Virus record (IMG/VR): IMGVR_UViG_2778261537_000018
Location: 1 to 24,993 of that record
From: a virus
Lineage: Duplodnaviria; Heunggongvirae; Uroviricota; Caudoviricetes
Reading direction: 5' to 3' (one strand)
Length of the DNA stretch: 24,993 bases
Shown here in pieces: positions 1 to 22,064 of this stretch (its first letter is position 1; each line of letters opens with the position of its first letter). Position numbers and translations under genes: made by a program. The notes below the pieces were generated by a model. It did not search any database and was not told the origin of the DNA. It saw nothing but the letters and a program-made list of their open reading frames with translations.

Positions 1-1719
1 ATGATTTTTAGGGATAGCTTGAGAGTATTACCTTATGGTCGAGTAGATAATGATTTCTTCCAGATAGAAGAAAGACGTTCATGGAATGCAGGGCGATATT
101 ATTGGTCTAATAGAAGGATTTTTGGTTATATTGGAATTACTCAATCCAGTAATAAAGAGCTGAAAGATAAGTCGGGGAGAGAGGGATTCATAAGAAACCA
201 GGCTGCAAGAGAACTGAAAACTATTATATCTAATTTGTTAACTGAACTTGCTGATAGATTTTTTGGTTCACGTTCTGATGACCGTAAAGAGCTTTTAGAA
301 CAAGTTAAGCGTGAAAAAGAGTTAAGAAAATCTGCTCAACAACAAGCTCGAAAATCAACACAAAAAAGTTTTTCAGAAGCTTTGAAGAATCAGACACCAG
401 TTCTTGATGCTTCCTTGGAGGCTGTTAAAAGGCTGAAAACTAAGCTTGATAAAACTGATGGTTCGTTAGATTTAAACTATCTTAAAATTATAGACAGTGA
501 TCTTACAAACTTAGATGCGTTGCGCAGTGAAATTAAAACGCCTATCAAACCTCCAAAACTTGGAATGTATGAAGAGAAATATAGAGACTACAGAGATAAA
601 TTTAATGAGTTCTCTGCGTATATTCTACAAATGAAGTTAGCAATTAATAAACTTGATTCTGAATTAAATAAACTTGAGCCTTCATTGTCAGCGAAAAATC
701 ACCTTGAAAAAAATCAAGGTATTATTAATTCTAAACTAACTAAGTTTAATAACACGATAGAGGAGAAGATACATTCTCTTTTAAAAAAATGGGCCGATGA
801 AATAAAGGTTGATCGAAGTGATTATTATGCTAAAACTATATCAGTTGTTGATTCAATAGATAATGATTCACAAATTGAAAATGTGTTTAATTTGCTCGAT
901 AGTTTATATGTTGAGTCAGTTGATACCCTAATTTTCAAATATCAATCAATAATAAAAGGTCTCGATAGATTATTTGAAGGTATAAACTTAGATTCAGCAT
1001 TCTCATTATCTGAAGAAGAACGCTCATATTTTGAAGAAAAAGCTAAAAGTTTAAACGCGCTTGCACAGTTAGGTATTAGTGTTGAGATAATATCTCATGA
1101 ACTTGAAGAAATGGATTCTATGGTAACCAGAGGACTAAACTCTCTTCCTACTTCTGTAAAAGAACACCCTGGTTTTTCATTGGCGTTAAATGCTCACAGA
1201 TCGCTTACTCAACAAATACGTTTCTTATCACCTTTGAAAATATCAGGTTATCAATCCAGGCAGAGAATAACTGGAAAAAATATCATGGATTATGTCCTGA
1301 AGTTCTTTGGGGAGCGTTTCGAACGGCAACGAATAACTATTGAATTTAGTGAAGAGTTTAAGCAAATCGCAATAACAGATATACCATCAAGGATCTATCC
1401 TGTTTTTACTAATATTATCAACAATGCAATGTATTGGGTCAGTCTGTCAAATAATAGGCTCATAAAGATTGGTTTTGTGAATTCTTTGGTTATCATAGCA
1501 AATTCTGGTCCGGCAATTGATACCGATGATATCCCGCGACTATTTGAACTATTTTATAGCAAAAGAGCAAATGGACATGGGGTAGGTCTGTATCTATGTC
1601 GAGAAAACCTTGCTGTTGCACATCATAAAATATGGTATTCAGAACCTGATGAAGGCGATAACTATTTAATAAAAGATGGCGCTAATTTTGTGATCCAGTT
1701 CAATGGAGTGGAGTTCTAA
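1..1719 (+). CDS. Cytoplasmic histidine-kinase-like protein: coiled-coil N-terminal half, HisKA-like H-box, C-terminal HATPase_c (GHKL) domain
   Basis: ATG at 1, stop TAA 1717-1719. H-box-like IISHELEEM about 100 aa upstream of N-box NIINNAMYW; degenerate G1 box NSGPAID, F-box LFELF, G2 box GHGVGL. N-terminal half is K/E/L-rich (coiled-coil-like) with no obvious hydrophobic TM segment. Both window ends coincide with start codons, so the gene is probably complete. Confidence 0.6.
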   Translation: MIFRDSLRVLPYGRVDNDFFQIEERRSWNAGRYYWSNRRIFGYIGITQSSNKELKDKSGREGFIRNQAARELKTIISNLLTELADRFFGSRSDDRKELLEQVKREKELRKSAQQQARKSTQKSFSEALKNQTPVLDASLEAVKRLKTKLDKTDGSLDLNYLKIIDSDLTNLDALRSEIKTPIKPPKLGMYEEKYRDYRDKFNEFSAYILQMKLAINKLDSELNKLEPSLSAKNHLEKNQGIINSKLTKFNNTIEEKIHSLLKKWADEIKVDRSDYYAKTISVVDSIDNDSQIENVFNLLDSLYVESVDTLIFKYQSIIKGLDRLFEGINLDSAFSLSEEERSYFEEKAKSLNALAQLGISVEIISHELEEMDSMVTRGLNSLPTSVKEHPGFSLALNAHRSLTQQIRFLSPLKISGYQSRQRITGKNIMDYVLKFFGERFERQRITIEFSEEFKQIAITDIPSRIYPVFTNIINNAMYWVSLSNNRLIKIGFVNSLVIIANSGPAIDTDDIPRLFELFYSKRANGHGVGLYLCRENLAVAHHKIWYSEPDEGDNYLIKDGANFVIQFNGVEF

Positions 1720-1720
1720 T

Positions 1721-3469
1721 ATGACAGTGGCAAATTATAATTCTCTTGTCCAGAAAACTTTCTGCGAAAATGCAATTCGTTCCGTTGTCATGATTGATGA
1801 CGATTTTCTGACGTATTCTGAATCAATCAGGGCGTTGAATAACGAAGTTGATTTAGACTACAACAAAATTGACTCATCTAAACGAGCCGCTACTCTTGAG
1901 AGCTTTTTTCAATCTAAAAATATGATTTGTGATGTTGACAATGGTTCTGTTAATTTCGATGTGGATCGGATTAGAAAATCAGATCTTATTATTGTAGATT
2001 ATCATCTTGATAATAATGCACCTGATAAAACACTTAAACTATTACAAGATTTGAAAGACTCCGATCATTTAAATATGATTGTAATATATACTAGAGAGAA
2101 TTTAGAAACGGTTTGGATGCAGATATCATCGACTCTCAAAGGTGCTCTGGATATCAACAGCTTGATCATTGACTACGATAATGAAGATGTCCAAAGTTAT
2201 TGGGAAGACGTTGTATTACCGAACTTAAATGATAATGGTAATAAAGCTCTCACAAGAGATGAAACAATAGCCTATATTAAAGACAGTAAGCCTTGTAGAA
2301 GAATTAAAAGATTAATACATGATGATGCTGTGTTGGAGGATCAAAAGGATAAAAACTTCATTGCAAAAATGATTGCAGAATATGCTGTGTCTAGAAATGC
2401 AATTATTTCTAGCAACACATCTGGCTATGTCATTCGGGGTGATGAAAGCGGAGTAAAATGGATTCAATGTGGTAATATCTTTGTCTCCCTATTTCATAAG
2501 GTTCAAGATGATCATGAAAACGATGGAGATAGGATTTGGCAAACTCTCAATGATTCTCTCATTGAATGGAAACCATCTTATTATCAGTTAATAAAATCTG
2601 AAATTCAGAATGCAATCGAAGCTGAGGCTTTATCTTTTGTAAATCATTTGGCTAACGATCATTACGGTCAAGCTGCGTGGTTAAATGAGATATTAAAATC
2701 AGACTCGCCTGATATTAGATGTAGAAATATTGACTTTGTATTTGGTAATTTATCAGAAGAGCTTTATCAAAGACTTAAAAATAATAATACGCTGGATGAA
2801 TTTATCAAAAGTGTTTTTGATAGCTATTCAAATGAATACGCTAACAGCGGAGTTGCTGCATTGCTCCAATATTGCTCTTCAAAAATGGATCTGCCATCAA
2901 ATAATGATACTTATCACGAAATGTATCATGCTTTAAATATGAATTTGTCTTCAAAGAATTTTGAAGATGGTCATATTTCTACTGGCACTATTTTCTTTGA
3001 TACAGAGTCGAACAAATGGTATTTATGTGTGTCTGCGGCATGTGATTTGGTTCCTACTCAGGGTAACGACCCTCACCATGTAAGATTAAGTCCGCACAGG
3101 CTCATTAAAGTTCTGGAGCTTTTTAACGCCAGTCAGAGTAAAGCATTGCCATTTGCTGAACATTCGAAATATATATATGTAATGCATAAAAATCAAAGAA
3201 AATATCTCTCTATTTTCGAAGGGGATAAAACGCTTCCTGTTGTTGATTATATGGTGGTGTTGAATCATGGAACAACAGTTGATGGCGAAGAAAAAAATAT
3301 TATTTCTGCCGTGTTTTTAAGTAATATGGATGGCAACGTGCAAAATGTTCCTGTCCGACTCAAACTTAAATCTCAACTGAGAACTGGTTATGCAGAAAGA
3401 TATCAGGCTATAGCGTCTCAGTATAGCTCAAGGATTGGTGTGGATTATGTATCAATGATGCTACCATAA
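1721..3469 (+). CDS. Receiver (REC) domain protein with large uncharacterised C-terminal domain
   Basis: ATG 1721 preceded by GGAG at 1709-1712, immediately after the upstream stop (operon-like). N-terminal about 120 aa show REC hallmarks: VVMIDDD (acidic pair), DLIIVDYHLD (phospho-acceptor Asp position), MIVIYT (conserved Thr), then Lys. The remaining about 450 aa have no motif I recognise. ORF track start at 1703 overlaps the upstream gene; 1721 preferred. Confidence 0.6.
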   Translation: MTVANYNSLVQKTFCENAIRSVVMIDDDFLTYSESIRALNNEVDLDYNKIDSSKRAATLESFFQSKNMICDVDNGSVNFDVDRIRKSDLIIVDYHLDNNAPDKTLKLLQDLKDSDHLNMIVIYTRENLETVWMQISSTLKGALDINSLIIDYDNEDVQSYWEDVVLPNLNDNGNKALTRDETIAYIKDSKPCRRIKRLIHDDAVLEDQKDKNFIAKMIAEYAVSRNAIISSNTSGYVIRGDESGVKWIQCGNIFVSLFHKVQDDHENDGDRIWQTLNDSLIEWKPSYYQLIKSEIQNAIEAEALSFVNHLANDHYGQAAWLNEILKSDSPDIRCRNIDFVFGNLSEELYQRLKNNNTLDEFIKSVFDSYSNEYANSGVAALLQYCSSKMDLPSNNDTYHEMYHALNMNLSSKNFEDGHISTGTIFFDTESNKWYLCVSAACDLVPTQGNDPHHVRLSPHRLIKVLELFNASQSKALPFAEHSKYIYVMHKNQRKYLSIFEGDKTLPVVDYMVVLNHGTTVDGEEKNIISAVFLSNMDGNVQNVPVRLKLKSQLRTGYAERYQAIASQYSSRIGVDYVSMMLP

Positions 3470-3995: not shown

Positions 3996-5225
3996 TTAGG
4001 CTACCAGAGCATTTGATCTTTGAGCTTGAACGTAATCACTCCACCATTGCATCAAACTCTGTCGCTCTATCAGATATTCTGCACGATTGTATGCTGCGAT
4101 AATTTCATCTTTTTTCGAGTGGGCAAGCGCTGCCTCAAGAACTTCAGCTCTGAATTTACCAGACTCCTCTGCCGCTGTTCGTGCAATAGAACGCATACCG
4201 TGAGCTACAAGCTCGCCTCCGAACCCCATTCGGATGATAGCTGCGTTGGCTGTTTGTTCATGCATATGATTAAGAGGCGCTTTTATGCTGGGGAAAACCC
4301 ATTCTCTATGCCCACTTATTGATTTCATTAATTCAAGGATGCGCAAAGCTTCTTTACTCAAAGGAACTTTGTGAAGCTTTTTCATTTTCATGAAATCAGC
4401 AGGAATGTTCCAAATGCTGTTGGTTGTATCAATATCAGACCACCTTGCGCGAACGGCTTCACCCGGACGAACCCATGTCAACAATTGCCATTCAATTAGC
4501 ATACGTGTTTCCAACCGGATTGACGCATTCGTCAAAGATTCCATAAACCTTGGCAATTCGCTTGGGGGAAGGGCAGGCATATTTTGCTTTTTTGGTTTAC
4601 TGAATCTTTGACCAAGGTTGTCAGCCGGGTTGAACTCAATAAGTTCTTCAGTAGCTGCCCACCGGAAGATTTCATTCAGACGTGAAATGATACGGCGTAG
4701 AGTTTCCAATACGCCTCGTTGCTCAATAGGATCAAGGTGTTGTTTTAAGAGCTTAGGTCGGATCTCATTGATAGGGACATTACCCAGACCGGGAAAGACA
4801 TTTCTCTCTAAGCTGCGCCAGATGTCTGCTGCATGGTCTTGTGAGATACCTGATGTCTTTACCTTCTCATCTAACCATTTCCGCGCTACGGCTTGGAGAG
4901 TGTGCTCAGTAGCACTCTTTAATGCCTTCGCCTTATCGTTGTTATGGATTTGGGGATCAACACCATTTGCCAGAAAGGAGAGATATTCATCACGTAAGGC
5001 TCTGGCTCTTGCAAGGGTAAGGTGAGGATATGTCCCAAGGCTCATTTTGGTTCTTTTCTTGCTCACTGGTACTGCATACCTGAAATACCAATTTTTCTTG
5101 CCTCCTTTCGCCAAAGGAGCGATTCGTAGAATCAGACCATCACCGTCAAACAAGTTGATTTCTTTATCGGCTGGCTTGGTGCTTTTGATTTCAGTGTCAG
5201 TGAGCTTCTTAGCGATTTTTGCCAT
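3996..5225 (-). CDS. int: P4-type (CP4-57 IntA-like) tyrosine integrase
   Basis: N-terminus MAKIAKKLTDTEIKSTKP... with the arm-binding (DUF4102-like) signature of P4-family integrases; C-terminal catalytic region HGMRSIARTAAEE...AHS...YNRAEY. Start taken at the internal ATG (5223-5225) rather than the ORF-track start 5267. Sits next to the ssrA-derived 45-bp repeat, as intA does next to ssrA in E. coli K-12. Confidence 0.85.
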   Translation of the reverse strand: MAKIAKKLTDTEIKSTKPADKEINLFDGDGLILRIAPLAKGGKKNWYFRYAVPVSKKRTKMSLGTYPHLTLARARALRDEYLSFLANGVDPQIHNNDKAKALKSATEHTLQAVARKWLDEKVKTSGISQDHAADIWRSLERNVFPGLGNVPINEIRPKLLKQHLDPIEQRGVLETLRRIISRLNEIFRWAATEELIEFNPADNLGQRFSKPKKQNMPALPPSELPRFMESLTNASIRLETRMLIEWQLLTWVRPGEAVRARWSDIDTTNSIWNIPADFMKMKKLHKVPLSKEALRILELMKSISGHREWVFPSIKAPLNHMHEQTANAAIIRMGFGGELVAHGMRSIARTAAEESGKFRAEVLEAALAHSKKDEIIAAYNRAEYLIERQSLMQWWSDYVQAQRSNALVA

Positions 5226-5390
5226 TTTGGGACCCTCGGTTTTTGGACCCTTCTTAGTGGGTCCCATTCAGGGTGCCATAACTCGTAGTTCTCAGCAATT
5301 CTCACTGGACGACAATAGACGTAAAAAAGCCCGCAGAGCTTGTGCTGTGTGGGCTTAGTAGACTTCATTGAACTTCAAACAACTAAAAAG

Positions 5391-5435
5391 TGGTGGAGCT
5401 GGCGGGAGTTGAACCCGCGTCCGAAATTCCTACAT
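5391..5435. repeat. 45-bp direct repeat identical to the 3' end of ssrA (att site between tandem elements)
   Basis: tggtggagctggcgggagttgaacccgcgtccgaaattcctacat is identical at 5391-5435 and 23934-23978 (the 3' end of the intact tmRNA gene); sequences diverge immediately beyond on both sides. Confidence 0.85.
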
Positions 5436-5527
5436 ACTATTATTAATGGTTGAGATGCAATAATTTATCAATATTATCATTGATTTAGTGTTTTGGCGTA
5501 TTAGCAAGTGTTATGCATTTTTACTCT

Positions 5528-5550
5528 TCTGTCGCCATTTTGCCGCCACT
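5528..5550. repeat. 23-bp direct repeat, left copy (tctgtcgccattttgccgccact)
   Basis: Exact 23-mer also present at 23865-23887, same orientation; each copy lies just inside the 45-bp ssrA repeats. Confidence 0.8.
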
Positions 5551-5643
5551 TATACTAATGCAATAGAATATCTACCTACGATAATTTATACTGGAAGTGA
5601 TGAAAAAATAAAAAAATATCAATACTTTTCGATGTGGGGATAT

Positions 5644-7386
5644 ATGAAAACACAGAAATTCGTAAGTGAACTTTTTTTAGAAAATGGGCAGTTTATTCTA
5701 GTTGGCTTAACTGGAAGAACTGGTTCTGGTTGTACTACAGCAGCAACTATTTTAGAAAGTAATGAGACAGTATTTCCCGATGTGGATAAATTAACTGATT
5801 TTTATAATGGTTTAGATTTACAGCGTTATAAGATAGTTAAGGATTTCACTGAGAATCATTGGGAGGCATTTTACTCAATCAAGGTTAGTGACTTGCTATC
5901 AGTTTATTTGTTAGCAATGTCACATACTGAACTTTCACACTTCATCACGTCGTCAACTAAAGATAGCATTGATGAAGATAAATTAAACAAGATACTTAAT
6001 GAAGGAGCATTTTCAAAAACACAACTTAGAAAAATAAGGACGGATATATTAAAAGCACTTATTGATCATAGTCAAGAATTAGATCTCGATAATCTAGATG
6101 TATCTAACATAAGAAAAACATTGCATTTGGTTAGGTTTTTCACTAATAACTTCAAAAAAGAACTTAATGAGATAAATACAGGTCTTTATGTATCAACTTA
6201 TCAGGCCGCTGGAAAATCTGTTAGACGGCTTGGTGAAGTAAAAACAAACTATGAAACAGAAGAATTTGATCCAAAATCGGTATTTCATTTGCCTGAAACT
6301 ATTAATAGGGTCATTAAGCTAATTAGAAAAAGCCAAGGTGGTAAGGCATTAGTAGTTATTGATGCTATACGTAATCCATATGAAGCTAAATTCTTTAAAG
6401 ATAGATATGCTGCATTCCATTTGGTATCAATTAATGCTCCTGATGAGCATAGGAAAAAATATTTACAGAAGCTACACAAGTTTTCATCTGAGCGCATTAA
6501 ACACATTGATGATATTGAATCAGGAAAAGGAGATAAAGACAATCAATATAAACATTTAACGAACCCTAATGTAACGAAATGCATAGAAATTTCGGATATA
6601 CATCTTTATAATCCTAAAAATGAGTTTGATAACAATAACATACTTAAAGCACAACTTGCATGGTATATCGCTCTAATGAAGCATCCTGGATTGATCACTC
6701 CTACAGCGATGGAGCGAGTTATGCAGGTCGCATATACTGTTAAATTAAACTCTGGATGTATATCGAGGCAGGTCGGTGCCGTTGTTACAGATAATGATAA
6801 TTCAATTAAATCAGTTGGTTGGAATGATGTAGCTAAAGGGCAGATACCATGTTCAATGAGATCACTCGATGGGTTGATCAATGATTTTGATTCGAAAGTA
6901 TATAGCTCATATGAGCGAAATGATGCTCTTTTTAGAAAGAAAGCTAAAAGTAATTTAATAAAGTTTAGAGCGATTGAATCAAGCTCTGAAATTTTTAAAG
7001 GACGTAATTTGTCATATTGCTTCAAGGATATTCATAATAGTCTTAATGATGATAAAAAAGGGAATCAGGTCCATACCAGAGCTTTACATGCTGAAGAAAA
7101 TGCCTTTTTACAATTATCTAAATATGGTGGCGTTGGTGTCCAAGGTGGTAAGTTGTATACTACAGCAAGTCCTTGTGAACTTTGTGCAAAAAAAGCATAT
7201 CAATTAGAGGTCGCTGAAATAATTTTCATTGATCCTTATCCGGGTATTGCACAAGATCATATTATTAATATAGGTAATAATCCACCTAAATTAATTCAAT
7301 TTAGAGGGGCAATTGGTAAATCATATCATCGATTATATGAACAAATTATTCCTATGAAAGATGAGTTGGATTATTTATCAATGTAA
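5644..7386 (+). CDS. P-loop kinase-like domain fused to cytidine/deoxycytidylate deaminase domain (AvcD/DcdV-like anti-phage dCTP deaminase architecture)
   Basis: N-terminal Walker-A-like GLTGRTGSGCTT; C-terminal zinc-deaminase signature HAEENAF...SPCELCAKK (H-x-E and PC-x-x-C). Start placed at ATG 5644 (GGGGA 3-7 nt upstream); in-frame alternatives at 5632 and 5488. AT-rich relative to phage backbone. Stop 7384-7386 is 9 bp from the convergent int stop. Confidence 0.65.
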   Translation: MKTQKFVSELFLENGQFILVGLTGRTGSGCTTAATILESNETVFPDVDKLTDFYNGLDLQRYKIVKDFTENHWEAFYSIKVSDLLSVYLLAMSHTELSHFITSSTKDSIDEDKLNKILNEGAFSKTQLRKIRTDILKALIDHSQELDLDNLDVSNIRKTLHLVRFFTNNFKKELNEINTGLYVSTYQAAGKSVRRLGEVKTNYETEEFDPKSVFHLPETINRVIKLIRKSQGGKALVVIDAIRNPYEAKFFKDRYAAFHLVSINAPDEHRKKYLQKLHKFSSERIKHIDDIESGKGDKDNQYKHLTNPNVTKCIEISDIHLYNPKNEFDNNNILKAQLAWYIALMKHPGLITPTAMERVMQVAYTVKLNSGCISRQVGAVVTDNDNSIKSVGWNDVAKGQIPCSMRSLDGLINDFDSKVYSSYERNDALFRKKAKSNLIKFRAIESSSEIFKGRNLSYCFKDIHNSLNDDKKGNQVHTRALHAEENAFLQLSKYGGVGVQGGKLYTTASPCELCAKKAYQLEVAEIIFIDPYPGIAQDHIINIGNNPPKLIQFRGAIGKSYHRLYEQIIPMKDELDYLSM

Positions 7387-7395
7387 GTCTGTACA

Positions 7396-8409
7396 TTATA
7401 AAAAGTTGAGTGGGTTTTTATAAACTGCGTCTTCAAGATGATCTGGTGAAAAGTGTGAATATACCATGGTCATCTTGATATCAGAATGACCCAAAATATC
7501 TCTCAAAACAAGTATGTTTCCGCCGTTCATCATAAAATGACTGGCGAAAGTATGGCGTAGCACATGAGTGCATTGTCCCGCTGGTAAGTCTATATTGGCC
7601 CGCTTCACTGCTCGTTCAAAAGCTTTTCTGCATGGCGTGAACAGCTTCCCCCTGTTTTTGGGTAGTTCGTCGTATAGCTCCTGAGATATCGGTACAGTTC
7701 GGTTTTTCTTGCCTTTGGTTTTGGTATAGGTGATCCGATATTTTGATAACTGATGGCCTTGAAGGTTTTCGGCTTCACTCCACCGCGCGCCGGTAGCTAG
7801 GCATACCTTTGCGATCATCAATAGGCTAGGGCTTTGAGAATCAGCGCAGGCATCAAGCAGGCGTTTAATTTCGTCCAAGGCTAAGAATGCCAATTCACCC
7901 TCTGCGATTTTGAATGTCGGTAGCCCGGCGAGTGGGTTAGGCGCTGACCAGTGGCCCAACTTCTTCAGGGTGCCAAAAACGGATGATAAGTTACGCTGTT
8001 CAAGGTTTACCGTGCGTGGTTTTACTGGCGACATTAGCGCGCCTTCTTCGTTACGTACCTCTCCTTTCAACCGTGCTTCACGATATTTCGTAAAGTCACC
8101 GGCGGTTAATTCAGAGGCGACGGGATCGCCTAGGCCATTGCAGATAATATTCAGTTTCGCCATCAGGCGCTTGGGGTCTGCGAGCGTCTGGCCGTAAAGG
8201 GAGTGCCACTGCTCAATCAATTCTGACAAACGCCGCCGATCTTCCTTTTCACCCAGCCACGGCTTTTTGTTCACTTGATCCATGGTGAAGTTTTCGAATG
8301 CTACAGCCTCGCCCTTTGTCGCAAATTGCTTGCGCACGCGCTTGCCGTCACGCCCGTTCGGGTAACACTCGCACAACCATTTTCCGTTCGGCTGTTTTCT
8401 GATGGTCAT
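7396..8409 (-). CDS. int: P2/186-type phage tyrosine integrase
   Basis: 337 aa; N-terminal ...NGKRVRKQFATKGEAVAFE and C-terminal HVLRHTFASHFMMNGGNILVLRDILGHSDIKMTMVYSHF (catalytic His/Arg/Tyr region). Start ATG 1 nt after the cI stop on the same strand (translational coupling). Confidence 0.85.
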   Translation of the reverse strand: MTIRKQPNGKWLCECYPNGRDGKRVRKQFATKGEAVAFENFTMDQVNKKPWLGEKEDRRRLSELIEQWHSLYGQTLADPKRLMAKLNIICNGLGDPVASELTAGDFTKYREARLKGEVRNEEGALMSPVKPRTVNLEQRNLSSVFGTLKKLGHWSAPNPLAGLPTFKIAEGELAFLALDEIKRLLDACADSQSPSLLMIAKVCLATGARWSEAENLQGHQLSKYRITYTKTKGKKNRTVPISQELYDELPKNRGKLFTPCRKAFERAVKRANIDLPAGQCTHVLRHTFASHFMMNGGNILVLRDILGHSDIKMTMVYSHFSPDHLEDAVYKNPLNFL

Positions 8410-8410
8410 A

Positions 8411-9043
8411 TCAAAGGCTCTTAATGATTTTCAATGCGCGGCCAACAACCTCGATATCATCCAGGCTGCACTCAAACGAAGAATCATCTTGATGTACAAC
8501 TAATCTGTTTCCGGGAAGGCGAGTTAGCTTAACAATGCTTTTTATCCCGTCGATATCGACCAACCACATCCCATTCACTGGTAGTGTCTGGTTACGGTCA
8601 ATTAAATATGAATCGCCATTGGTATTTACGAGAAGTAGCTCGCTTGAGTCAGGGGGAAGCAGGCTGCTATCAATGATGGCCTTCCCGGCTTCAATCAACG
8701 AACCTCCGATAAGGCTAGCCTTATCGATCTCTGGCGATACAAGCTCAGAAAGTGGTTTTACTTTGCTAGAGTTCACGAAATTGATACTTTTTCTATCATC
8801 AATTTTTGTTCCTGGTTCGCCTTGTCCTGTAGTTAGCCAGAGTAATGAAACGCCTGTTTCAAGAGCGCATTGGATCACCCATTCTGCAGGGAAGCTATCC
8901 CTTAAGTATCTGTTTGCCATAGTGCTTTTAGATGCGCCTAAGTGATCGCATAGCTGCTGTCGGGACTTGAAATCATAGGCAGCCATCAACCTATGGATAG
9001 CCTCTCTACCCCCTGTATTCTCGCCAGCCTTCACCTGTATCAT
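8411..9043 (-). CDS. CI-like phage repressor (186 cI-like, HTH N-terminal domain)
   Basis: 210 aa immediately upstream of int on the same strand; HTH-like segment QQLCDHLGASKSTMANRYLRDSFPAEWVIQCALETGVSLLWLTTGQG; position and orientation match the 186 cI-int operon. Confidence 0.7.
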   Translation of the reverse strand: MIQVKAGENTGGREAIHRLMAAYDFKSRQQLCDHLGASKSTMANRYLRDSFPAEWVIQCALETGVSLLWLTTGQGEPGTKIDDRKSINFVNSSKVKPLSELVSPEIDKASLIGGSLIEAGKAIIDSSLLPPDSSELLLVNTNGDSYLIDRNQTLPVNGMWLVDIDGIKSIVKLTRLPGNRLVVHQDDSSFECSLDDIEVVGRALKIIKSL

Positions 9044-9055
9044 TTTTTAATCCTA

Positions 9056-9107
9056 TTGACGTATCAAATATTGGATCGTAGTATCTCGATTGTTCAAATA
9101 TTGGATC
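9056..9107 (+). promoter_or_regulatory. Lytic promoter (pR-like) with flanking 14-bp direct-repeat operator candidates
   Basis: TTGACG (9056-9061), 17-nt spacer, TAGTAT (9079-9084); direct repeat tcaaatattggatc at 9064-9077 and 9094-9107. Lies in the divergent intergenic region between cI and the apl-like gene. Confidence 0.4.
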
Positions 9108-9162
9108 ACATAAAACAAGATAAAACGACATAAACCAAACCTTAACTGAGAGATACTGCACT

Positions 9163-9405
9163 ATGAGCACTGATATTTCAATTCGTGTACCAAAAGAGAT
9201 GGCTACGCCTGCAGAGTTCGCTGAATGGGAAGGTATCTCCCGTGGCTCTGTTTACCAGAAAATTCACCATGGCCAGCTCGCCAAGTACATGGTCAAGAAA
9301 GAAAAAAACAAAGGTCGCGTAAGCCTTCGTTACCTGATGTACAAAACCGACCAGGTTCGTGAATCCCTCGGTCATTCCAACTTCCGCGTCATTGTTGGTA
9401 AGTAA
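9163..9405 (+). CDS. Apl/Cox-like small excisionase/regulator
   Basis: 80-aa ORF, first gene of the rightward operon facing cI, as apl is in 186; basic, possible HTH (WEGISRGSVYQKIHHGQL). Assignment is positional plus weak motif. Confidence 0.5.
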   Translation: MSTDISIRVPKEMATPAEFAEWEGISRGSVYQKIHHGQLAKYMVKKEKNKGRVSLRYLMYKTDQVRESLGHSNFRVIVGK

Positions 9406-9437
9406 GTTCAATTATGGGAACTTTCTAAGGGGGCAGC

Positions 9438-9947
9438 ATGTTTGATTACAAGATTTCCAAACATCCGAATTTTGATGAAGCCTGTAGAGCTTTTGCACTA
9501 CGTCACAACATGACGAAGCTGGCAGAACGTGCAGGAATGAATGTTCAGACACTGCGAAACAAACTCAACCCAGATCAACCGCATCAGCTCACAGCGCCAG
9601 AAATCTGGTTGCTCACCGATCTGACTGAAGATTCAACGCTGGTAGATGGCTTTTTGGCACAGATTCACTGCCTGCCATGCGTACCAATTAATGAGGTGGC
9701 AAAAGAGAAACTGCCACATTACGTCATGAGTGCAACCGCAGAGATCGGGCGTGTTGCTGCAGGTGCGGTATCTGGTGATGTAAAAACTAGTGCCGGTCGT
9801 CGTGATGCTATCAGCAGCATTAACTCTGTAACACGACTGATGGCGCTGGCGGCTGTTTCATTGCAGGCCCGTTTACAGGCTAATCCTGCGATGGTGAGTG
9901 CAGTTGATACCGTGACTGGCCTCGGTGCTTCATTCGGTTTGCTGTGA
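9438..9947 (+). CDS. Phage CII-like regulatory protein (186 CII / CP76 family)
   Basis: 169-aa ORF after the apl-like gene; length and position match 186 cII as I recall it; N-terminal HTH-like region. No database check possible. Confidence 0.55.
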   Translation: MFDYKISKHPNFDEACRAFALRHNMTKLAERAGMNVQTLRNKLNPDQPHQLTAPEIWLLTDLTEDSTLVDGFLAQIHCLPCVPINEVAKEKLPHYVMSATAEIGRVAAGAVSGDVKTSAGRRDAISSINSVTRLMALAAVSLQARLQANPAMVSAVDTVTGLGASFGLL

Positions 9948-9954
9948 GGTGCTT

Positions 9955-10251
9955 ATGCTGACGAAAGAACCATCATTTGCATCGCTGCTGGTAAAACAAA
10001 GCCCGGCAATGCACTACGGTCACGGCTGGATCATGGGTGAGGATGGTAAACGCTGGCATCCATGTCATTCACAAGATGAATTGCTGTCTGAATTGACCAC
10101 GAGGAAACGGAGAAAGTCAAAATGTATGCAGCGGAAAGTGAAGTGGTTTATCAGTTTCGTTACAGAGGGGAGAGTTATTCAGTACCTGAAGATGATTTGC
10201 TCTGTTGTTATCCGTCGTTGTCGGGCGATGGCAGTTACTTTTTCACGCTAA
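9955..10251 (+). CDS. Fil-like small phage protein (C-terminal extent uncertain)
   Basis: ATG 9955 with GAGGTG 4 nt upstream, immediately after the cII stop; N-terminus ...HYGHGWIMGEDGKRWHPC resembles enterobacterial prophage Fil proteins as I recall them. Overlaps the next ORF by about 130 nt in another frame. Confidence 0.35.
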   Translation: MLTKEPSFASLLVKQSPAMHYGHGWIMGEDGKRWHPCHSQDELLSELTTRKRRKSKCMQRKVKWFISFVTEGRVIQYLKMICSVVIRRCRAMAVTFSR

Positions 10252-10346
10252 GGGATGGGACGTTTTTACGGGGAGAGCAGGTTAAAGAGACGATACGAAA
10301 AAATGTATCTCCTCTTGAACGTTACCGTAAGAACAAAGAACGATAG
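10122..10346 (+). CDS. Hypothetical small phage protein
   Basis: 74-aa ORF with GGAG about 10 nt upstream; overlaps the 3' part of the Fil-like ORF in a different frame, so one of the two is mis-delimited or there is a frameshift. Confidence 0.3.
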   Translation: MYAAESEVVYQFRYRGESYSVPEDDLLCCYPSLSGDGSYFFTLRDGTFLRGEQVKETIRKNVSPLERYRKNKER

Positions 10347-10368
10347 TTGCGTTTTGGGGATATGAATT

Positions 10369-10710
10369 ATGGCAATTAATGGCGCTGCGGCGACTGTTCC
10401 ATTAAGCCCCGGTGAACGCCTGAATGGACTTAATCACATTGCGGAGTTAAGGGCGAAAGTATTTGGCCTGAATATTGAGTCAGAGCTTGAGCGGTTTATT
10501 AAAGATATGCGTGATCCACGGGATATCAATAACGAACAAAATAAACGAGCACTGGCTGCCATATTCTTTATGGCAAAAATTCCAGCTGAACGTCATAGCA
10601 TCAGCATTAATGAGCTGACCACTGACGAAAAGCGGGAGTTGATTAAAGCAATGAATCATTTTCGTGCAGTGGTGAGCTTATTTCCCAGACGGCTAACCAT
10701 GCCGAATTAA
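10369..10710 (+). CDS. Hypothetical phage early-region protein
   Basis: 113-aa ORF with GGGGA SD 8 nt upstream; same strand and region as P2 orf80-83 / 186 CP genes. Confidence 0.45.
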   Translation: MAINGAAATVPLSPGERLNGLNHIAELRAKVFGLNIESELERFIKDMRDPRDINNEQNKRALAAIFFMAKIPAERHSISINELTTDEKRELIKAMNHFRAVVSLFPRRLTMPN

Positions 10711-10777
10711 GCAACTAATGAAATTAATGGCGTAAACCCGCCGGGCATCCCTTTATCTAAATTCAGGAGAATTGATT

Positions 10778-11011
10778 ATGCGTAATATTGAAACCCTCAC
10801 GACTAAAACCGGACCGGATGATGCAGGGCTTAATATTTTACTGACAGAGGCTCGTCTGGAAGAACGCCGGGCAAGGGCTGAAGCAATGGCAGCTCGCCTT
10901 GATAGCCTGGCGTGTCATATCACATCCCGCCAGCTAAACCACGTCGAAGCGGCAGAACTGCTGCGTGTGACTGCTGAAGCAATCCAGAACGAAGCGCAGG
11001 AGATCCACTAA
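10778..11011 (+). CDS. Hypothetical phage early-region protein
   Basis: ATG 10778 preceded by AGGAGA (10765-10770); 77 aa; stop overlaps the start of the TraR-like gene (TAATG). Confidence 0.45.
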   Translation: MRNIETLTTKTGPDDAGLNILLTEARLEERRARAEAMAARLDSLACHITSRQLNHVEAAELLRVTAEAIQNEAQEIH

Positions 11012-11238
11012 TGGCAGATGCAATGGATCTCGTACAGCAGCGCGTTGAAGAAGAACGCCAGCGCTATATCCGTGCTGCCCGTGCCAAAACACCGGGCGTG
11101 TCTCGTGTGCTTTGTATTGAATGTGAAGCGCCAATTCCGCCAGCACGACGCCGCGCCATTCCTGGAGTGCAGCTTTGCATTACCTGTCAGGAAATCGCAG
11201 AGCTGAAAGGCAAACATTACAACGGAGGTGTTGTATGA
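11011..11238 (+). CDS. TraR/DksA-family C4 zinc-finger protein
   Basis: 75 aa with CIECEAPIPPARRRAIPGVQLCITCQ (C-x2-C...C-x2-C), typical of phage TraR-like proteins; start overlaps the upstream stop and its own stop overlaps the dam start. Confidence 0.65.
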   Translation: MADAMDLVQQRVEEERQRYIRAARAKTPGVSRVLCIECEAPIPPARRRAIPGVQLCITCQEIAELKGKHYNGGVV

Positions 11239-12092
11239 GCACCATCCTGAAATGGGCGGGAAATAAAACCGCCATTATGTCCGAACTGAAAAAACATCTT
11301 CCTGCTGGCCCGCGACTGGTTGAACCTTTCGCGGGTTCCTGTGCTGTGATGATGGAGACGGATTACCCCAGCTATCTTGTTGCGGATATTAATCCTGATT
11401 TAATCAACCTCTATAAAAAGATTGTCGCTGATTGCGAAGCGTTTATATCTCGTGCCAGAGCTTTATTTGAGGAAGCAAACAGGGATGTGGCTTATTACAA
11501 CATAAGGCAGGAGTTTAATTACTCCACTGAAATTACTGATTTCATGAAAGCGGTATATTTCCTGTATCTCAATCGTCATGGTTACCGTGGGTTATGTCGC
11601 TATAACAAGAGCGGGCATTTCAACATTCCGTACGGTAATTATAAAAATCCGTATTTCCCTGAAAAAGAAATTCGCGCATTTGCAGAGAAAGCCCAGCGGG
11701 CAACGTTTATCTGCGCAAGCTTTGATGAAACGCTGGCGATGCTGCAGGTGGGGGATGTGGTGTATTGCGATCCGCCGTATGACGGTACGTTTTCCGGCTA
11801 TCACACTGATGGTTTCACTGAAGATGACCAGTATCACCTGGCATCCGTTCTTGAACATCGGTCATCAGAAGGACATCCGGTCATTGTTTCTAACAGTGAC
11901 ACATCCCTGATCCGTTCGCTGTATCGCAATTTTACTCACCACTACATCAAGGCAAAACGCAGCATCGGTGTGGCAGCTGGTGAGAGTAAATCTGCAACAG
12001 AAATCATCGCTGTTTCCGGGCCGCGCTGCTGGGTGGGATTTGATCCTTCGCGTGGCGTGGATAGTTCAGCCGTGTACGGAGTACGTGCATGA
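11235..12092 (+). CDS. dam: DNA adenine methyltransferase (Dam-like, orphan N6-A MTase)
   Basis: Motif I-like EPFAGSCAV and catalytic motif DPPY ([12 protein letters not shown]); N-terminus [11 protein letters not shown]. Start at ATG 11235 (ORF-track start 11175 is an upstream extension). No adjacent restriction endonuclease gene. Confidence 0.8.
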
Positions 12093-14509
12093 GTCATGCC
12101 GATATGAACAACTGCTGCGGCTTTAACGAGGCTGCCGCAGCGTTCTCATGGAACAGCCCGAAAAAGGCCATTAACCCTTATCTGGACCCGGCGGAAGTTG
12201 CGCCGGTTTCTGCGCTTTCAAACCTGATCACTCTGTACGCTGCCGATAACGAGCAGGAACAACTGCGCCGCGAGGCACTGAGTGATCAGGTCTGGGAGCG
12301 TTATTTTTTTAATGAATCACGTGATCCTGTCCAGCGCGAAATGGAGCAGGATAAGCTCATTAGCCGGGCAAAGCTGGCGCATGAGCAGCAGCGTTTTAAT
12401 CCGGATATGGTCATTCTGGCGGACGTCAACGCCCAGCCTTCCCATATCAGCAAGCCGCTGATGCAACGTATTGAATACTTTAGCAGCCTGGGCAGGCCAA
12501 AGGCTTATTCCCGCTATTTACGTGAGACGATTAAGCCATGTCTGGAACGACTGGAGCATGTACGCGACAGCCAGCTATCTGCATCTTTTCGTTTTATGGC
12601 AAGCCATGAAGGGCTGGACGGCCTGCTTATCCTGCCTGAAATGAGTCAGGATCAGGTGAAGCGCCTGTCTACCCTTGTCGCTGCGCATATGAGCATGTGC
12701 CTTGATGCCGCTTGTGGTGATTTGTATGCCACCGATGACGTTAAGCCAGAAGAAATCCGCAAAACATGGGAAAAGGTGGCAGCGGAAACCCTGCGTCTGG
12801 ATGTTATTCCGCCTGCGTTTGAGCAACTCCGTCGGAAAAGAAACCGCCGTAAACCCGTGCCCTATGAACTCATTCCGGGTTCGCTGGCGCGTATGTTGTG
12901 TGCCGACTGGTGGTATCGGAAATTATGGAAGATGCGTTGCGAATGGCGGGAAGAGCAGTTGCGTGCTGTCTGCCTGGTCAGCAAAAAAGCATCTCCCTAT
13001 GTCAGCTATGAAGCCGTGATGCATAAACGTGAGCAGCGCCGCAAGTCACTGGAGTTTTTCCGTTCTCATGAACTGGTGAACGAAGAGGGCGACACGCTGG
13101 ATATGGAAGACGTGGTAAACGCCAGCAGCAGCAACCCGGCGCACCGCCGCAATGAGATGATGGCCTGTGTTAAAGGTCTGGAGCTTATCGCGGAAATGCG
13201 TGGTGATTGCGCCGTTTTCTACACCATTACCTGTCCGTCACGTTTCCATTCCACGCTCAATAACGGCAGACCAAACCCAACCTGGACAAATGCGACGGTA
13301 AGACAAAGCAGCGATTATCTGGTCGGCATGTTTGCTGCATTTCGTAAGGCGATGCACAAAGCCGGGTTGCGCTGGTATGGCGTGCGGGTGGCTGAGCCGC
13401 ATCATGACGGTACGGTTCACTGGCACCTGTTGTGTTTCATGCGCAAAAAAGACCGCCGTGCCATTACTGCATTGTTGCGTAAGTTTGCCATCCGTGAAGA
13501 CCGCGAGGAACTGGGTAATAACACTGGTCCACGCTTTAAATCTGAGCTGATAAACCCGCGCAAAGGAACACCGACAAGCTACATCGCGAAATACATTAGT
13601 AAGAACATTGACGGGCGTGGTCTGGCTGGCGAGATCAGCAAGGAAACGGGTAAATCCCTGCGTGATAACGCTGAATACGTTAATGCCTGGGCGTCTCTGC
13701 ATCGTGTTCAGCAATTCCGCTTCTTTGGTATTCCGGGGCGTCAGGCTTACCGTGAACTGCGATTGCTGGCTGGTCAGGCGGCAAGGCAACAGGGCGACAA
13801 AAAAGCAGGTGCGCCGGTACTGGATAACCCGCGCCTTGATGCCATCCTGGCTGCTGCTGATGCTGGTTGTTTTGCCACTTACATCATGAAGCAGGGTGGC
13901 GTACTGGTTCCCCGCAAATATCACCTCATCAGAACTGCTTATGAAATTAACGAAGAGCCGACCGCCTATGGCGATCACGGCATTCGTATTTATGGCATCT
14001 GGTCACCCATTGCAGAGGGCAAGATCTGCACTCATGCAGTGAAGTGGAAAATGGTCCGTAAAGCCGTTGACGTTCAGGAGGCGGTAGCCGACCAGGGCGC
14101 TTGCGCCCCTTGGACTCGGACTCGTGGCAATAACTGTCCCCTTGCTGAAAATTTGAACCAACAAGGGAAAGACAAATCAGCTGATGGGGATACCAGAACG
14201 GATATCACCCGCATGGATGACAAGGAGTTGCACGATTACCTGCACAGTATGAGCAAAAAAGAACGCCGGGAACTGGCAGCAAGGTTACACCTGGTTAAAC
14301 CGAAACGGTGTAAAGACTACAAACAGCGAATTACAGACCATCAGCGACAGCAGCTCGTGTATGAGCTGAAGTCCAGAGGGTTTGATGGTAGCGAGAAAGA
14401 GGTCGATTTACTCCTTCGCGGCGGCAGTATTCCGTCAGGAGCAGGCCTGCGTATCTTCTATCGGAACCAGCGTTTGCAGGAAGATGATAAGTGGCGAAAC
14501 CTGTATTAA
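12089..14509 (+). CDS. Phage replication initiation endonuclease (P2 gpA / 186 RepA family, rolling-circle type)
   Basis: 806 aa; start overlaps the dam stop (ATGA); contains the conserved [11 protein letters not shown] region I associate with P2 A-type replication proteins; position matches P2/186 synteny. Confidence 0.8.
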
Positions 14510-14601
14510 TTACGATGGTTAACCATTCGTGCTCTTAATAATACCAGGCATATCAGGCTGATAAACGTAAAAAAACGTTTTACATCAGTAAGATTATTAT
14601 A

Positions 14602-14621
14602 TACTGTAAATATAAACAGTG
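14602..14621 (+). promoter_or_regulatory. LexA (SOS) box upstream of the small ORF / DinI-like operon
   Basis: TACTGTAAATATAAACAGTG fits CTGT-N8-ACAG; lies about 40 bp upstream of a strong SD (AGGAGG 14653-14658) and ATG 14663. Confidence 0.5.
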
Positions 14622-14662
14622 GTTGTACATACAGTATTGCGTGTGGTGTCATAGGAGGAAAG

Positions 14663-14851
14663 ATGCAGGACTATTTTTTGGAGTCTTTGAAGCTCCAGCG
14701 CATTGATTTTTTTCTTAAGCTTGTAGCGGCCAGTGAGTGTAGTGATGAAGAGAAGGGACTGGCTCTGCAGTGGGTTTCTGAATTGACTGATGAACTCATG
14801 GCAAAAATCAGAAGCCACGAATACAACCGCTCAATGGATGTCATCAGCTGA
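14663..14851 (+). CDS. Small SOS-controlled phage protein (possible N-terminal part of a Tum-like antirepressor)
   Basis: 62-aa ORF with strong SD AGGAGG 5 nt upstream and LexA box in its promoter region; followed 10 nt later by the DinI-like ORF in another frame. Confidence 0.45.
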   Translation: MQDYFLESLKLQRIDFFLKLVAASECSDEEKGLALQWVSELTDELMAKIRSHEYNRSMDVIS

Positions 14852-14861
14852 GGTGACTTTT

Positions 14862-15095
14862 ATGCGCATTGAAATAATGATCGATAAAGAGCAGAAGATT
14901 AGCCAGTCTACCCTGGACGCCCTTGAATCCGAGCTTTACCGTAATCTGCGCCCCCTGTATCCCAAAACGGTAATTCGTATCCGCAAAGGTAGCTCTAACG
15001 GTGTGGAACTGACCGGACTGCAACTGGACGAAGAAAGGAAGCAAGTGATGAAAATTATGCAGAAGGTGTGGGAAGACGACAGCTGGCTGCATTAA
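14862..15095 (+). CDS. DinI-family protein (phage Tum/DinI-like)
   Basis: 77 aa starting MRIEIMIDKEQKISQSTLDALESELYRNLRPLYP...KVWEDDSWL, closely resembling E. coli DinI (MRIEVTIAK...AGAIDAL...E.WE..D.W); SD GAGGTG upstream. Confidence 0.7.
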   Translation: MRIEIMIDKEQKISQSTLDALESELYRNLRPLYPKTVIRIRKGSSNGVELTGLQLDEERKQVMKIMQKVWEDDSWLH

Positions 15096-15363
15096 GAAAC
15101 GTTGCTGGCGTCTGAACTTGTTTCTGGCGTCAGCAAGGTTGAACAACGAGCCCTTGCGAGGCGTTAGCTCTGTAGTGCATGTCTATGCCGCATGAGATCG
15201 CATGATCGTTTGAGGATCGTTTTTGCTAAGGCCCGCCAGAACTGGTGGGCTTTTGCGTAGATCATGCAGGTGCATGAAAACCACTACATAAAGCGGGCAG
15301 GCGTGGCGGGGATACGAGCGCGCGCTAACTCATAAATCCTAGATTATTAGTGGATTTATCTCA

Positions 15364-17187
15364 TTGAAATGTGCACTATTCCCAGCATTGAGTTGTACCA
15401 GATGTCTTTATGGAGGGACTGTGGCTTTTGTAACTGATATTCGGCTTGAAGATAATGCTATTGCTGCACCTGCGACAGCACAGGTTATGGCTCAGAGGCT
15501 AGGATCTGTATTACGTAAGAGATATGAAGAATTCATCCATAAAAGAGAGTGTGCACCAGGCCAAGCAGACTATGATGTAAAAATGGCTAGCAGGGCTTTA
15601 GCCGCATTCACTATGTATCAGTTAGGATGTGTGGATGATAAGTATGCAGGGGAGTCTGTATGTGATAGTAGTGAAGATGGTGGTATAGATGGAATAGCAA
15701 TCAACCATAACGAAAAAATCGTTGTTGTTGTTCAATCAAAATTTCACCAATCGGGAAACGGCACTTGGACAAGAGCCGATTTTATGTGTTTTAAGGATGC
15801 TTGTGAGAAGCTACAAAGTGAAAGATACGAATTATTTGATTCCATATTGCAAAATAAAAGCGGGGAAATAAGTGCGGCTTTAAGTAGTTTTGAATACAAG
15901 TTCATCTTTGCGATGGCGCATACAGGTAAAAAAGGTGCTGCAGAGGAAATATTAAATGATATGCGGGAATGGCAATATCAATTAAACGCTGCAGCTTTTA
16001 CACCTGAGGATGAGCCTAAAGAGAACTGGGGATTTCAGGTTCATTTAATATCCTCTGAAGATATGATGCATTGGTTACAGAATGGCTCTCGAAATCAAAT
16101 TGATCTTAACAGGGTTGAAATTGAGCGTTTTGGATTTTTGAATGAACCATATCAAGCTTTTTACGGGGCTATTAGTGGTGATCAAGTTGCAGAATGGTGG
16201 GAAGAGCATGGTGCTCGATTATTTACAAAAAACATAAGGAATATGCTTGGTAAAACAGAAGTGAATGAGGAAATAAAAAAGACAGCTATAGATAATCCTG
16301 ATATGTTTTGGTTTTATAATAATGGGATTACTGTACTGGTTAAGGAAGTTGTTCCTCATAGACGAAACGCAGCTCCTAATATAGAGAGAGGGATTTTTGA
16401 TTTTCGTGATGTAAGTGTCATTAATGGTGCACAAACAGTCAGTAGTATTGGCGCATGTAAAGATGCGCTTGGTGAAAACATATATAGACTCAAAGTGCCA
16501 GCTAGATTCATTGTTATAGATGATGATACTGATAATTTAACTGCAAATGCAATTACAAAAGCTAACAATTTCCAAAATAGAGTATTGGGAAGAGATTTTG
16601 CATCGCAGCAGGCAGATCAACATAGATTGGCAAGGGAGTTAGTGCTTGAAGGATATCAATATCAGTTACTAAGAACAGATGAAGATCATTCACAGACAAA
16701 TACGAAAGTCATTGACTTGGATGAGGCGCTCAATGCACTCGCATGTTTAAGTAAAAATAATACGGTTGTATCGACACTAAAATCAAATCGCGGTAGGTTT
16801 TTTGAAAATTTTGAAGGCTCTCTATATAAAACTATTTTCAATCCAAGATTAAGTGGTTTAAAACTTATCAATACTGTTCTACATTTTAGAGTTATAGATA
16901 AGTTGATCGGTAAAACATTACTATCAGTAGATAAAACGACCCATAGTCGCAAGCATTTAATTATTACGCATGGTAATAGATACTATGCGTCTGTACTATT
17001 GAGCAACGTTTCTGGGATACATAATAGCTCAGAAATTCTTGTTCCAGATGAAAAAAATCTTTCCGAAGAATTAAGTGCATTAATTCAACGTGCTGAAGAG
17101 TACATTGAAGATAATTACCCGAATGCCTATCCGGCAAGATTTTTTGCAAATCCAACGAAAATACAAGAGTTATACGATAATGTTTAA
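15364..17187 (+). CDS. AIPR-like putative abortive-infection protein with N-terminal PD-(D/E)xK-like motif
   Basis: Long AT-rich ORF between repA and the portal gene (the P2 old/tin cargo position). N-terminal DGGIDGIAI...VVVVQSKF resembles a PD-(D/E)xK (Mrr-like) core; FWFYNNGITVLV and VINGAQT resemble AIPR-family motifs as I recall them. True start uncertain (in-frame TTG 15364, GTG 15421, ATG 15487). Confidence 0.5.
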   Translation: MKCALFPALSCTRCLYGGTVAFVTDIRLEDNAIAAPATAQVMAQRLGSVLRKRYEEFIHKRECAPGQADYDVKMASRALAAFTMYQLGCVDDKYAGESVCDSSEDGGIDGIAINHNEKIVVVVQSKFHQSGNGTWTRADFMCFKDACEKLQSERYELFDSILQNKSGEISAALSSFEYKFIFAMAHTGKKGAAEEILNDMREWQYQLNAAAFTPEDEPKENWGFQVHLISSEDMMHWLQNGSRNQIDLNRVEIERFGFLNEPYQAFYGAISGDQVAEWWEEHGARLFTKNIRNMLGKTEVNEEIKKTAIDNPDMFWFYNNGITVLVKEVVPHRRNAAPNIERGIFDFRDVSVINGAQTVSSIGACKDALGENIYRLKVPARFIVIDDDTDNLTANAITKANNFQNRVLGRDFASQQADQHRLARELVLEGYQYQLLRTDEDHSQTNTKVIDLDEALNALACLSKNNTVVSTLKSNRGRFFENFEGSLYKTIFNPRLSGLKLINTVLHFRVIDKLIGKTLLSVDKTTHSRKHLIITHGNRYYASVLLSNVSGIHNSSEILVPDEKNLSEELSALIQRAEEYIEDNYPNAYPARFFANPTKIQELYDNV

Positions 17188-17190
17188 ACT

Positions 17191-17217
17191 AAAGGGAGGT
17201 TGCCTCCCTTTTTTTTA
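17191..17217. terminator. Rho-independent terminator between the AIPR-like gene and the portal gene (bidirectional candidate)
   Basis: aaAGGGAGGttgCCTCCCTttttttttt: 7-bp GC-rich stem (17193-17199 / 17203-17209), 3-nt loop, T-run 17209-17216; lies between convergent stops at 17187 and 17219. Confidence 0.6.
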
Positions 17218-17218
17218 A

Positions 17219-22061: not shown

Positions 22062-22064
22062 TCC

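Follow-up and report, generated by a model that had tools for sequence, protein, structure and literature searches.

The non-coding region upstream of a prophage-borne anti-phage deaminase gene: a probable composite of an ssrA attachment-site arm and a short gene leader

Layout of the locus

The window, i.e., the whole stretch of 24,993 nucleotides that was analysed here, was 100% identical to E. coli ETEC strain TW10598 throughout the region. Between two copies of an ssrA core it carries a phage-186/P2-like element (window 5391-23981), the features of which are compiled in Table 1. The left copy of this att core matches the 3' end of the intact tmRNA gene (ssrA; 23934-23981) with 98% identity and forms the junction common to the 186-type prophage on its right and an island with a P4-like integrase on its left. 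The same core was found in the ssrA-integrating P2-like phages SopEPhi, RE2010, SEN8, and Cartapus; for SopEPhi and Fels-2, integration in ssrA has been described (Nilsson et al. 2011).

Table 1. Features of the window around the deaminase gene and at the two ends of the prophage.
Feature	Position	Strand	Remarks
P4-like integrase	3996-5267	-	second island left of 5391, uses the same ssrA core
att core, duplicate of the ssrA (tmRNA) 3' end	5391-5438	-	48-nt direct repeat
AT-rich spacer, int-proximal att arm	5439-5527	.	homology extends to phages with other cargo or none
Two tandem predicted Int arm-type sites	5530-5551	+	consensus match, position independent of cargo
Deaminase-specific leader, 92 nt, 26% GC	5552-5643	+	arm homology ends just before; co-inherited with the gene
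Anti-phage dCTP/dCMP deaminase (AvcD/DcdV family), 580 aa	5644-7386	+	Pfam, PADLOC, PGAP
186-type tyrosine integrase	7396-8409	-	Pfam Int_N (arm-binding N-domain) and Phage_integrase
CI repressor	8411-9043		next to the integrase, as in phage 186; followed by Apl-position gene and CII
Three arm-type sites, other att arm	23835-23888	.	inverted site 23835-23845 and tandem pair 23867-23888
Intrinsic terminator, phage-supplied	23898-23925	-	12-bp stem, then T-run; just 3' of the restored ssrA end
IHF-consensus match, distal arm	23917-23929		pattern match
Intact tmRNA (ssrA) gene	23934-24296	-	ARAGORN; Rfam RF00023, 295.8 bits

The gene order of the prophage continues after CI with the Apl-position gene, CII, a methylase, replication protein A, and an AIPR/AbiU-like gene, followed by portal, terminase, scaffold, capsid, small terminase, two small ORFs, and the att site. 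At the prophage end (22065-23933), the small terminase gene (22065-22715) precedes an ORF of 220 aa without a family, an ORF of 160 aa, and the att arm; the 160-aa ORF belongs to phrog_2561, with the annotation ‘putative exonuclease’ in Cartapus. The prophage displayed no tail, lysis, or ogr/B genes, and it is regarded as defective because the tail and lysis genes are missing. The AIPR-domain protein of 607 aa (window 15364-17187, plus strand; Pfam PF10592; PADLOC AbiU, E = 7e-25) has its gene flanked by replication gene A and the portal gene, the classical P2 old/tin cargo position, and because of this position it is a likely second defence gene of the prophage.

Two further observations concern the neighbouring island with the P4-like integrase. 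Its part within window 1-3469 (plus strand) carries a gene pair coding for a protein with HEF_HK and HATPase_c domains, whose ORF runs off the window, and for a Response_reg_2 protein of 588 aa. Neither gene of the pair had a PADLOC match, and together they possibly form a conflict-system pair. Between the att core and the P4-like integrase, Rfam returned a sub-threshold match to the Salmonella island sRNA IsrM (window 5323-5400, minus strand; 53 bits compared to a gathering score of 376, E = 1e-13), which overlaps a terminator-like hairpin at 5327-5341.

The gene next to the att site encodes a protein with an N-terminal P-loop kinase-like domain including the Walker A motif GLTGRTGSGCTT, and a C-terminal dCMP deaminase domain with the zinc motif HAEENA...PCELC. 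Matches to the Pfam profile dCMP_cyt_deam_1 (PF00383, E = 1.7e-14) and to the PADLOC dCTP-deaminase model (E = 6.3e-140) were obtained, and the two-domain architecture together with the latter match bore out the original prediction of a deaminase of the AvcID/DcdV-DifV kind. In the PGAP annotation of TW10598, the start of this ‘anti-phage dCTP deaminase’ corresponds to the ATG at window 5644; the N-termini of homologues align to the same codon, and a Shine-Dalgarno sequence, GGGGA, lies at 5636-5640.

From the ssrA-derived att core to this ATG, a non-coding stretch of 205 nt (5439-5643) with a GC content of 29% extends, so the placement of such a stretch between the att repeat and the deaminase start, as originally proposed, was confirmed. 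The description as AT-rich holds as well, although it is not a distinguishing feature, the deaminase gene itself having a GC content of 32.5%; the rest of the prophage shows 49%. What did not stand is the view of a single leader of about 200 bp, as the stretch falls into two units, namely 5439-5551, which belongs to the phage backbone, and 5552-5643, which belongs to the deaminase cargo.

The attachment-site arm

Both ends of the prophage share an exact 23-bp repeat (5528-5550 and 23865-23887), the two copies flanking the duplicated ssrA core on both sides. The presence of one copy in the stretch upstream of the deaminase gene had been recognized before and was verified at 5528-5550. The repeat resolves into two tandem 11-bp units, TGTCGCCATTT and TGCCGCCACTT, which follow the consensus TGYCGCCAYTT with an 11-bp period, and 0 matches of this tandem motif are expected by chance (100 shuffles). 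Nilsson et al. (2011) described the direct repeat in the arm sites of 186-type integrases as tgccGCCActt. In the annotation of phage 186 (NC_001317), ‘Int arm-type recognition sequences’ with the consensus YAYCGCCAYTY are given, three of them left of attP and two to the right. The left arm is further annotated with a terminator and an IHF footprint; a second IHF footprint and five sites for the excisionase Apl separate the core from the right arm sites, and a small ORF, Orf69, lies between that arm and int. In the phage 186 sequence, the left sites were located as a tandem pair and a single inverted site, and those on the right as a tandem pair that starts 96 nt after the core. In the window, the right tandem pair starts 92 nt after the core, and the distal arm also comprises one inverted site plus a tandem pair, with the sites at -106, -77, and -66 from the core, a geometry that phage Cartapus shares. 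A search for the strict IHF consensus gave no match in 5439-5643 and one in the other arm (Table 1); the assignment of 5439-5527 to IHF and Apl is based on its position relative to the footprints of phage 186.

Four features of a 186-type att arm were found at this site: a duplicated tRNA-like core, arm-type sites, a linked Int_N integrase together with CI, and a conservation that does not depend on the cargo. With high confidence, the attachment site of a 186-type (P2-like, Peduoviridae) prophage in ssrA is predicted to have its int-proximal arm at 5439-5551, and 55% of 5439-5643 would accordingly be an arm bound by Int, IHF, and excisionase, the binding being assigned by homology. The int-proximal arm is the P' arm in lambda nomenclature, and the junction is therefore attL. 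As to its function, the N-terminal domain of the integrase would bind the two tandem arm-type sites next to the deaminase leader, and the same integrase would bind the three sites of the other arm. The AT-rich spacer would serve as the segment to which IHF and excisionase bind and at which the DNA is bent; on the bent DNA, arm-bound and core-bound integrase could then assemble the recombination complex.

That this arm belongs to the phage and not to the deaminase was evident from a comparison of seven loci, which have the ssrA core and a related integrase in common and whose att-int intervals have different contents. The tandem pair is located at +129/+140 from the core start in all seven of these ssrA-type phage loci, with homology throughout from the core to the second site, which is lost 3-5 nt past that site. 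Three versions of the deaminase (window, L002, and L004), the genes of which are 72-76% identical in nucleotides, occupy the slot between att and int in three loci; a RES-domain gene is found there in Cartapus, other ORFs in a Klebsiella phage and in strain E7476, and in strain S1 the slot is empty, the int stop codon lying 4 bp past the second arm site. Across all 178 fetched loci, the tandem motif was present in 23, all of them P2-like att contexts, and in none of the 155 other deaminase loci. Four haplotypes of the window-type deaminase, originating from E. coli, Serratia, and Klebsiella, displayed 31% variable columns in the arm spacer, 19% at third codon positions, and 16% in the leader; the difference between the arm and the third codon positions fits a separate history of backbone and cargo. 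In decayed prophage remnants of Klebsiella and Serratia, the arm is still found beside the deaminase gene, with int gone or truncated.

Some of these decayed prophages (L082-L089, ~2911-2925, equivalent to window 5541-5551) have lost one arm repeat by an exact 11-bp deletion, a slippage between the tandem units, with the deaminase and its 92-nt leader intact. The slot itself spans window 5552-7395 and was also seen in loci L002, L004, L008, L009, L010, and L011, and in phage 186 (L179:1158-1409). The paper on P2/P4 hotspots (PMC9122126) makes no mention of the att-int slot or of a deaminase. Given the very different cargo found in it, the att-int slot of ssrA-integrating 186-type phages is useful for the mining of defence genes.

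The deaminase leader and the question of an antitoxin RNA

The 92 nt that follow the arm were inherited together with the deaminase in all four haplotypes. With 16% variable columns, the leader is about as variable as the synonymous sites of the deaminase (third positions, see above), and a block at 5626-5649 as well as several internal blocks are invariant in 4/4 haplotypes. The three prophage-borne deaminase types have leaders of 92, 83, and 108 nt, respectively. Covariance and sequence comparisons with known AvcI/DifV RNAs had been proposed originally as a check on an antitoxin RNA. The comparisons made here yielded nothing in favour of such an RNA: alignment of the leader with those of the two sister prophage-borne deaminases revealed no homology, RNAalifold on the four leader haplotypes returned 0 compensatory pairs and an unfavourable covariation term, and Rfam searches of 5439-5643 at gathering and permissive thresholds gave a tmRNA fragment and noise only. 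Folding was no better than that of shuffled sequences on either strand, with z-scores of +1.05 (5439-5643), -0.38 (5552-5660), and +0.92 (minus strand), the fold and covariation tests being low-powered on a sequence of 26% GC with four haplotypes only. A weak helix was predicted between 5568-5580 and the Shine-Dalgarno region at 5633-5643.

A terminator scan found no terminator between the leader and the coding sequence. Promoter-like matches occurred at chance frequency, and in the window, L002, and L004 neither promoter nor terminator scans exceeded the level expected by chance. One promoter-like match, TTGCCG-N18-TAGAAT, has its -35 box (5540-5545) in the second arm site and its -10 box at 5564-5569, and this promoter is weakened as a candidate by the Serratia haplotype, which reads TAGAAC. 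A 20-bp imperfect palindrome at 5551-5570 was considered as an operator and rejected, since its symmetry, judged by eye, degrades in the other haplotypes. A mini-ORF, ATG AAA AAA TAA (window 5601-5612, plus strand), is preceded by GGAAG and keeps 3-4 codons in 4/4 haplotypes despite indels in the A-run; it may well be a product of chance in an A-rich sequence. Most likely, the leader consists of a promoter, a 5' untranslated region, and a Shine-Dalgarno sequence, and it would provide the deaminase with a sigma-70 promoter, a short 5' UTR, and a ribosome-binding site. The alternative of a regulatory region, also put forward originally, holds in a generic sense: these last 92 nt must carry expression signals, and the rest is a predicted arm for the binding of recombination proteins.

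For the characterised AvcID/DcdV-DifV systems, the statement that a small RNA is encoded directly upstream of the deaminase was borne out, the RNAs being located 5' of the gene and in the same orientation. In V. cholerae, the DifV RNA directly precedes dcdV on the same strand, and the two are co-transcribed; 152-174 nt are needed for a functional RNA, and the 174-nt DifV is inactive after trimming of 18 nt at the 5' or 4 nt at the 3' end. The AvcI transcript of V. parahaemolyticus is nearly 300 nt long, and no terminator is predicted before avcD. The four AvcI RNAs tested show no sequence similarity to each other, and two of them act on their cognate enzyme only; the PDB contains no structure of AvcD or of an AvcD-RNA complex. 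Because the known AvcI RNAs are dissimilar and lack a predicted terminator, the absence of homology, Rfam matches, and terminators is a weak negative here. Size and cognate co-evolution are informative, since the private part, 92 nucleotides, is too short and the remaining 113 also occur in phages without a deaminase. A dedicated RNA gene would comprise at least about 152-174 nt, 5' of the deaminase and in the same orientation, and the deaminase-specific sequence amounts to 92 nt. With 113 of the 205 nt belonging to the phage att arm and a private leader shorter than 152-174 nt, the analogous antitoxin sRNA suggested in the original prediction found no support, and the comparisons do not support a separate AvcI/DifV-like antitoxin RNA gene in 5439-5643.

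An AvcI/DifV-like RNA of ~160-200 nt might still be imagined to start from a promoter inside the att arm (for example, -35 at 5450, -10 ending at 5477), to extend across the arm sites and the leader as far as the mRNA or into it, to bind the deaminase and keep it inactive, and to decay when a phage shuts off transcription. The enzyme belongs to the AvcD family, AvcI is encoded and co-transcribed 5' of avcD as described above, the total non-coding length of 205 nt is within the range of 152-300 nt, and a start at the promoter-like match (10/12 at 5450-5477) would produce a leader of ~160 nt, which is in the size range of AvcI. Furthermore, remnants that have lost int still carry the arm next to the deaminase, and the homologue of strain AW1.7 is triggered via phage interference with host transcription, a behaviour expected of a labile inhibitor. 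However, the arm cannot have evolved as the cognate partner of the deaminase because it is common to phages with unrelated or no cargo. Moreover, the promoter-like sequence is not conserved in L002 or L004 and such matches are at chance frequency, the arm is more variable than synonymous sites and has a fold z-score of +1.05, and L082-type relatives have lost one arm repeat while keeping the deaminase intact, making an RNA from within the arm very unlikely in our opinion. We consider quite unlikely a miniature AvcI, in which the leader or 5' UTR (5552-5643), perhaps together with the first codons, would serve as a short RNA inhibiting the deaminase. It is true that no other upstream element is always inherited together with the window-type deaminase, that the leader includes the invariant blocks (5626-5649 and internal ones, 4/4 haplotypes), and that its 5568-5580 segment is weakly predicted to pair with the Shine-Dalgarno region. 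But 92 nt is below the minimal functional AvcI, DifV being intolerant even of the trimming mentioned above, the overall variability of the leader is at the level of synonymous sites, consensus folding gave no compensatory changes and an unfavourable covariation term, the leaders of sister deaminases are unrelated, and those of integron-cassette homologues measure only ~30-40 nt. Two further arrangements were weighed jointly: either the leader, with or without arm sequence, is the source of a short and labile RNA restraining the enzyme, i.e., a miniaturised AvcI overlapping the recombination site, or the second Int arm site supplies the -35 box (TTGCCG) of the deaminase, whereby occupancy by Int or excisionase would couple expression to the state of the prophage. 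Even taken together, they appear unlikely.

A coding function of the region is hardly conceivable. It would require translation of the ORF from GTG 5488, resulting in a deaminase of 632 aa with an N-terminal extension of 52 residues, and an open frame from 5488 is indeed present, with one ENA gene call of 622 aa among close relatives. Against it, homologue N-termini and the PGAP start both point to ATG 5644, directly before which the Shine-Dalgarno sequence is located, the extension would read across the conserved arm sites, and Klebsiella-type relatives with an intact deaminase have a deletion of 11 nt and an indel of 1 nt that disrupt its frame. Based on homologue alignment, frame breaks, and read-through of the arm sites, the translated extension was rejected, in agreement with the earlier view that it is probably untranslated. 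The reading we prefer is that of a composite region, with 5439-5551 as the prophage attachment arm and 5552-5643 as the deaminase leader and with no separate antitoxin RNA gene, and we regard it as likely. The region is an ordinary one in that it combines a recombination arm of a known kind with a short expression leader.

Upstream conservation in the wider deaminase family

The deaminase family is very large, and many of its clades display a start-anchored upstream conservation of 120-270 nt, which makes AvcI-like elements plausible in these other clades. In the metagenomic homologues L120 and L129, the upstream sequence from -161 to -1 is 84% identical, compared to 77% for the coding sequence, and this is a better candidate for an AvcI-like RNA than anything in the window. 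The Pseudomonas loci L037, L146, and L147 have 180-270 nt of upstream sequence in common. A Proteus homologue (57% aa identity; L080:2064-2982) is preceded by a gap of ~919 nt without ORFs of at least 80 aa, the last 300 nt of which have a GC content of 16%, and this gap may be relevant to the AvcI of P. mirabilis. At the other end of the range are homologues in Vibrio integron cassettes (66-67% aa identity), where only ~30-40 nt separate the end of one attC from the ATG, and the following attC begins at the stop codon. Since the attC repeats abut start and stop, there is no room for a flanking RNA gene; as integron cassettes may be silent, such cassettes do not prove that the enzyme is harmless alone. 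Vibrio homologues (43-67% aa identity) were seen in superintegrons with attC-like repeats of ~122 nt (L019:434-4772, L018:2054-2094, and L044:295-6740). Several clade members leave little or no room for a flanking RNA, which raises the question of whether control by an RNA antitoxin is universal in the AvcD family.

For the locus in the window, an annotation as an AvcI-type antitoxin is plausible but misleading, over half of the ‘leader’ being a predicted integrase-binding arm. The 92 nt upstream that belong to the deaminase provide the defence module with a clean cloning boundary.

Comparison with known systems

[quoted passage not shown] Those systems have a dedicated RNA of at least 152-174 nt (with a transcript of ~300 nt) in an intergenic region of up to ~500 nt, whereas at the locus described here 92 nt are deaminase-specific and the other 113 nt are a phage recombination arm.

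With the anti-phage dCTP deaminase of E. coli AW1.7, the deaminase of the window shares 70% aa identity. The AW1.7 enzyme is an experimentally validated single-gene defence, the cloned fragment including the gene's own promoter region; mutations by which phages escape it map to T7 gp5.7, which inhibits the host RNA polymerase (Tal et al.). In contrast to the gene in the window, that of AW1.7 resides in a tRNA-Phe island behind a different integrase, and the conserved leader of its clade, ~95 nt, is not homologous to the leader described here. Within this clade, the region from -95 to -1 (L003, L012, L013, L015, L016, L108, L109, and L111) includes a promoter-like TTGAtt-N17-TAATAAT and a 5' UTR hairpin, CCACA...TGTGATGTG (CCACA..TGTG). 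Common to all members are only these ~95 nt; some conserve up to 158-220 nt, the part from -220 to -95 being limited to a subset.

The attP of phage 186 (NC_001317, 20889-21147), whose Int arm-type, IHF, and Apl sites are footprinted or predicted, is similar to the site in the window in its CGCCA-centred 11-bp repeats in tandem with an 11-bp period, in having one inverted and two direct sites in the int-distal and two direct sites in the int-proximal arm, in the position of the right pair about 92-96 nt after the core, and in the terminator and IHF site of the distal arm. Both have the 3' end of a tRNA-like gene as their core, followed by the order arm, small cargo slot, int, and cI. Differences concern the core, which is ssrA here and tRNA-Ile (ileY) in 186, the arm-type site, TGYCGCCAYTT compared to YAYCGCCAYTY, and the slot, filled by a deaminase gene of 1.7 kb on the opposite strand here and by Orf69 in 186. 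The prophage described here is also without tail and lysis genes, and binding to its arm is predicted from the sequence.

A close correspondence was also found with the ssrA-integrating P2-like phages Fels-2, SopEPhi, RE2010, SEN8, Cartapus, and ST437-OXA245phi4.1, which have the same att core and identical offsets of the arm sites. Unlike in the window, their slot carries a RES-domain protein gene, genes of hypothetical proteins, or no cargo at all, and in this set the AT-rich spacer of the window is the most divergent one. The arm is homologous to that of the Klebsiella phage ST437-OXA245phi4.1, with 77.6% identity over 158 nt, and the window and Cartapus are almost identical in the distal arm.
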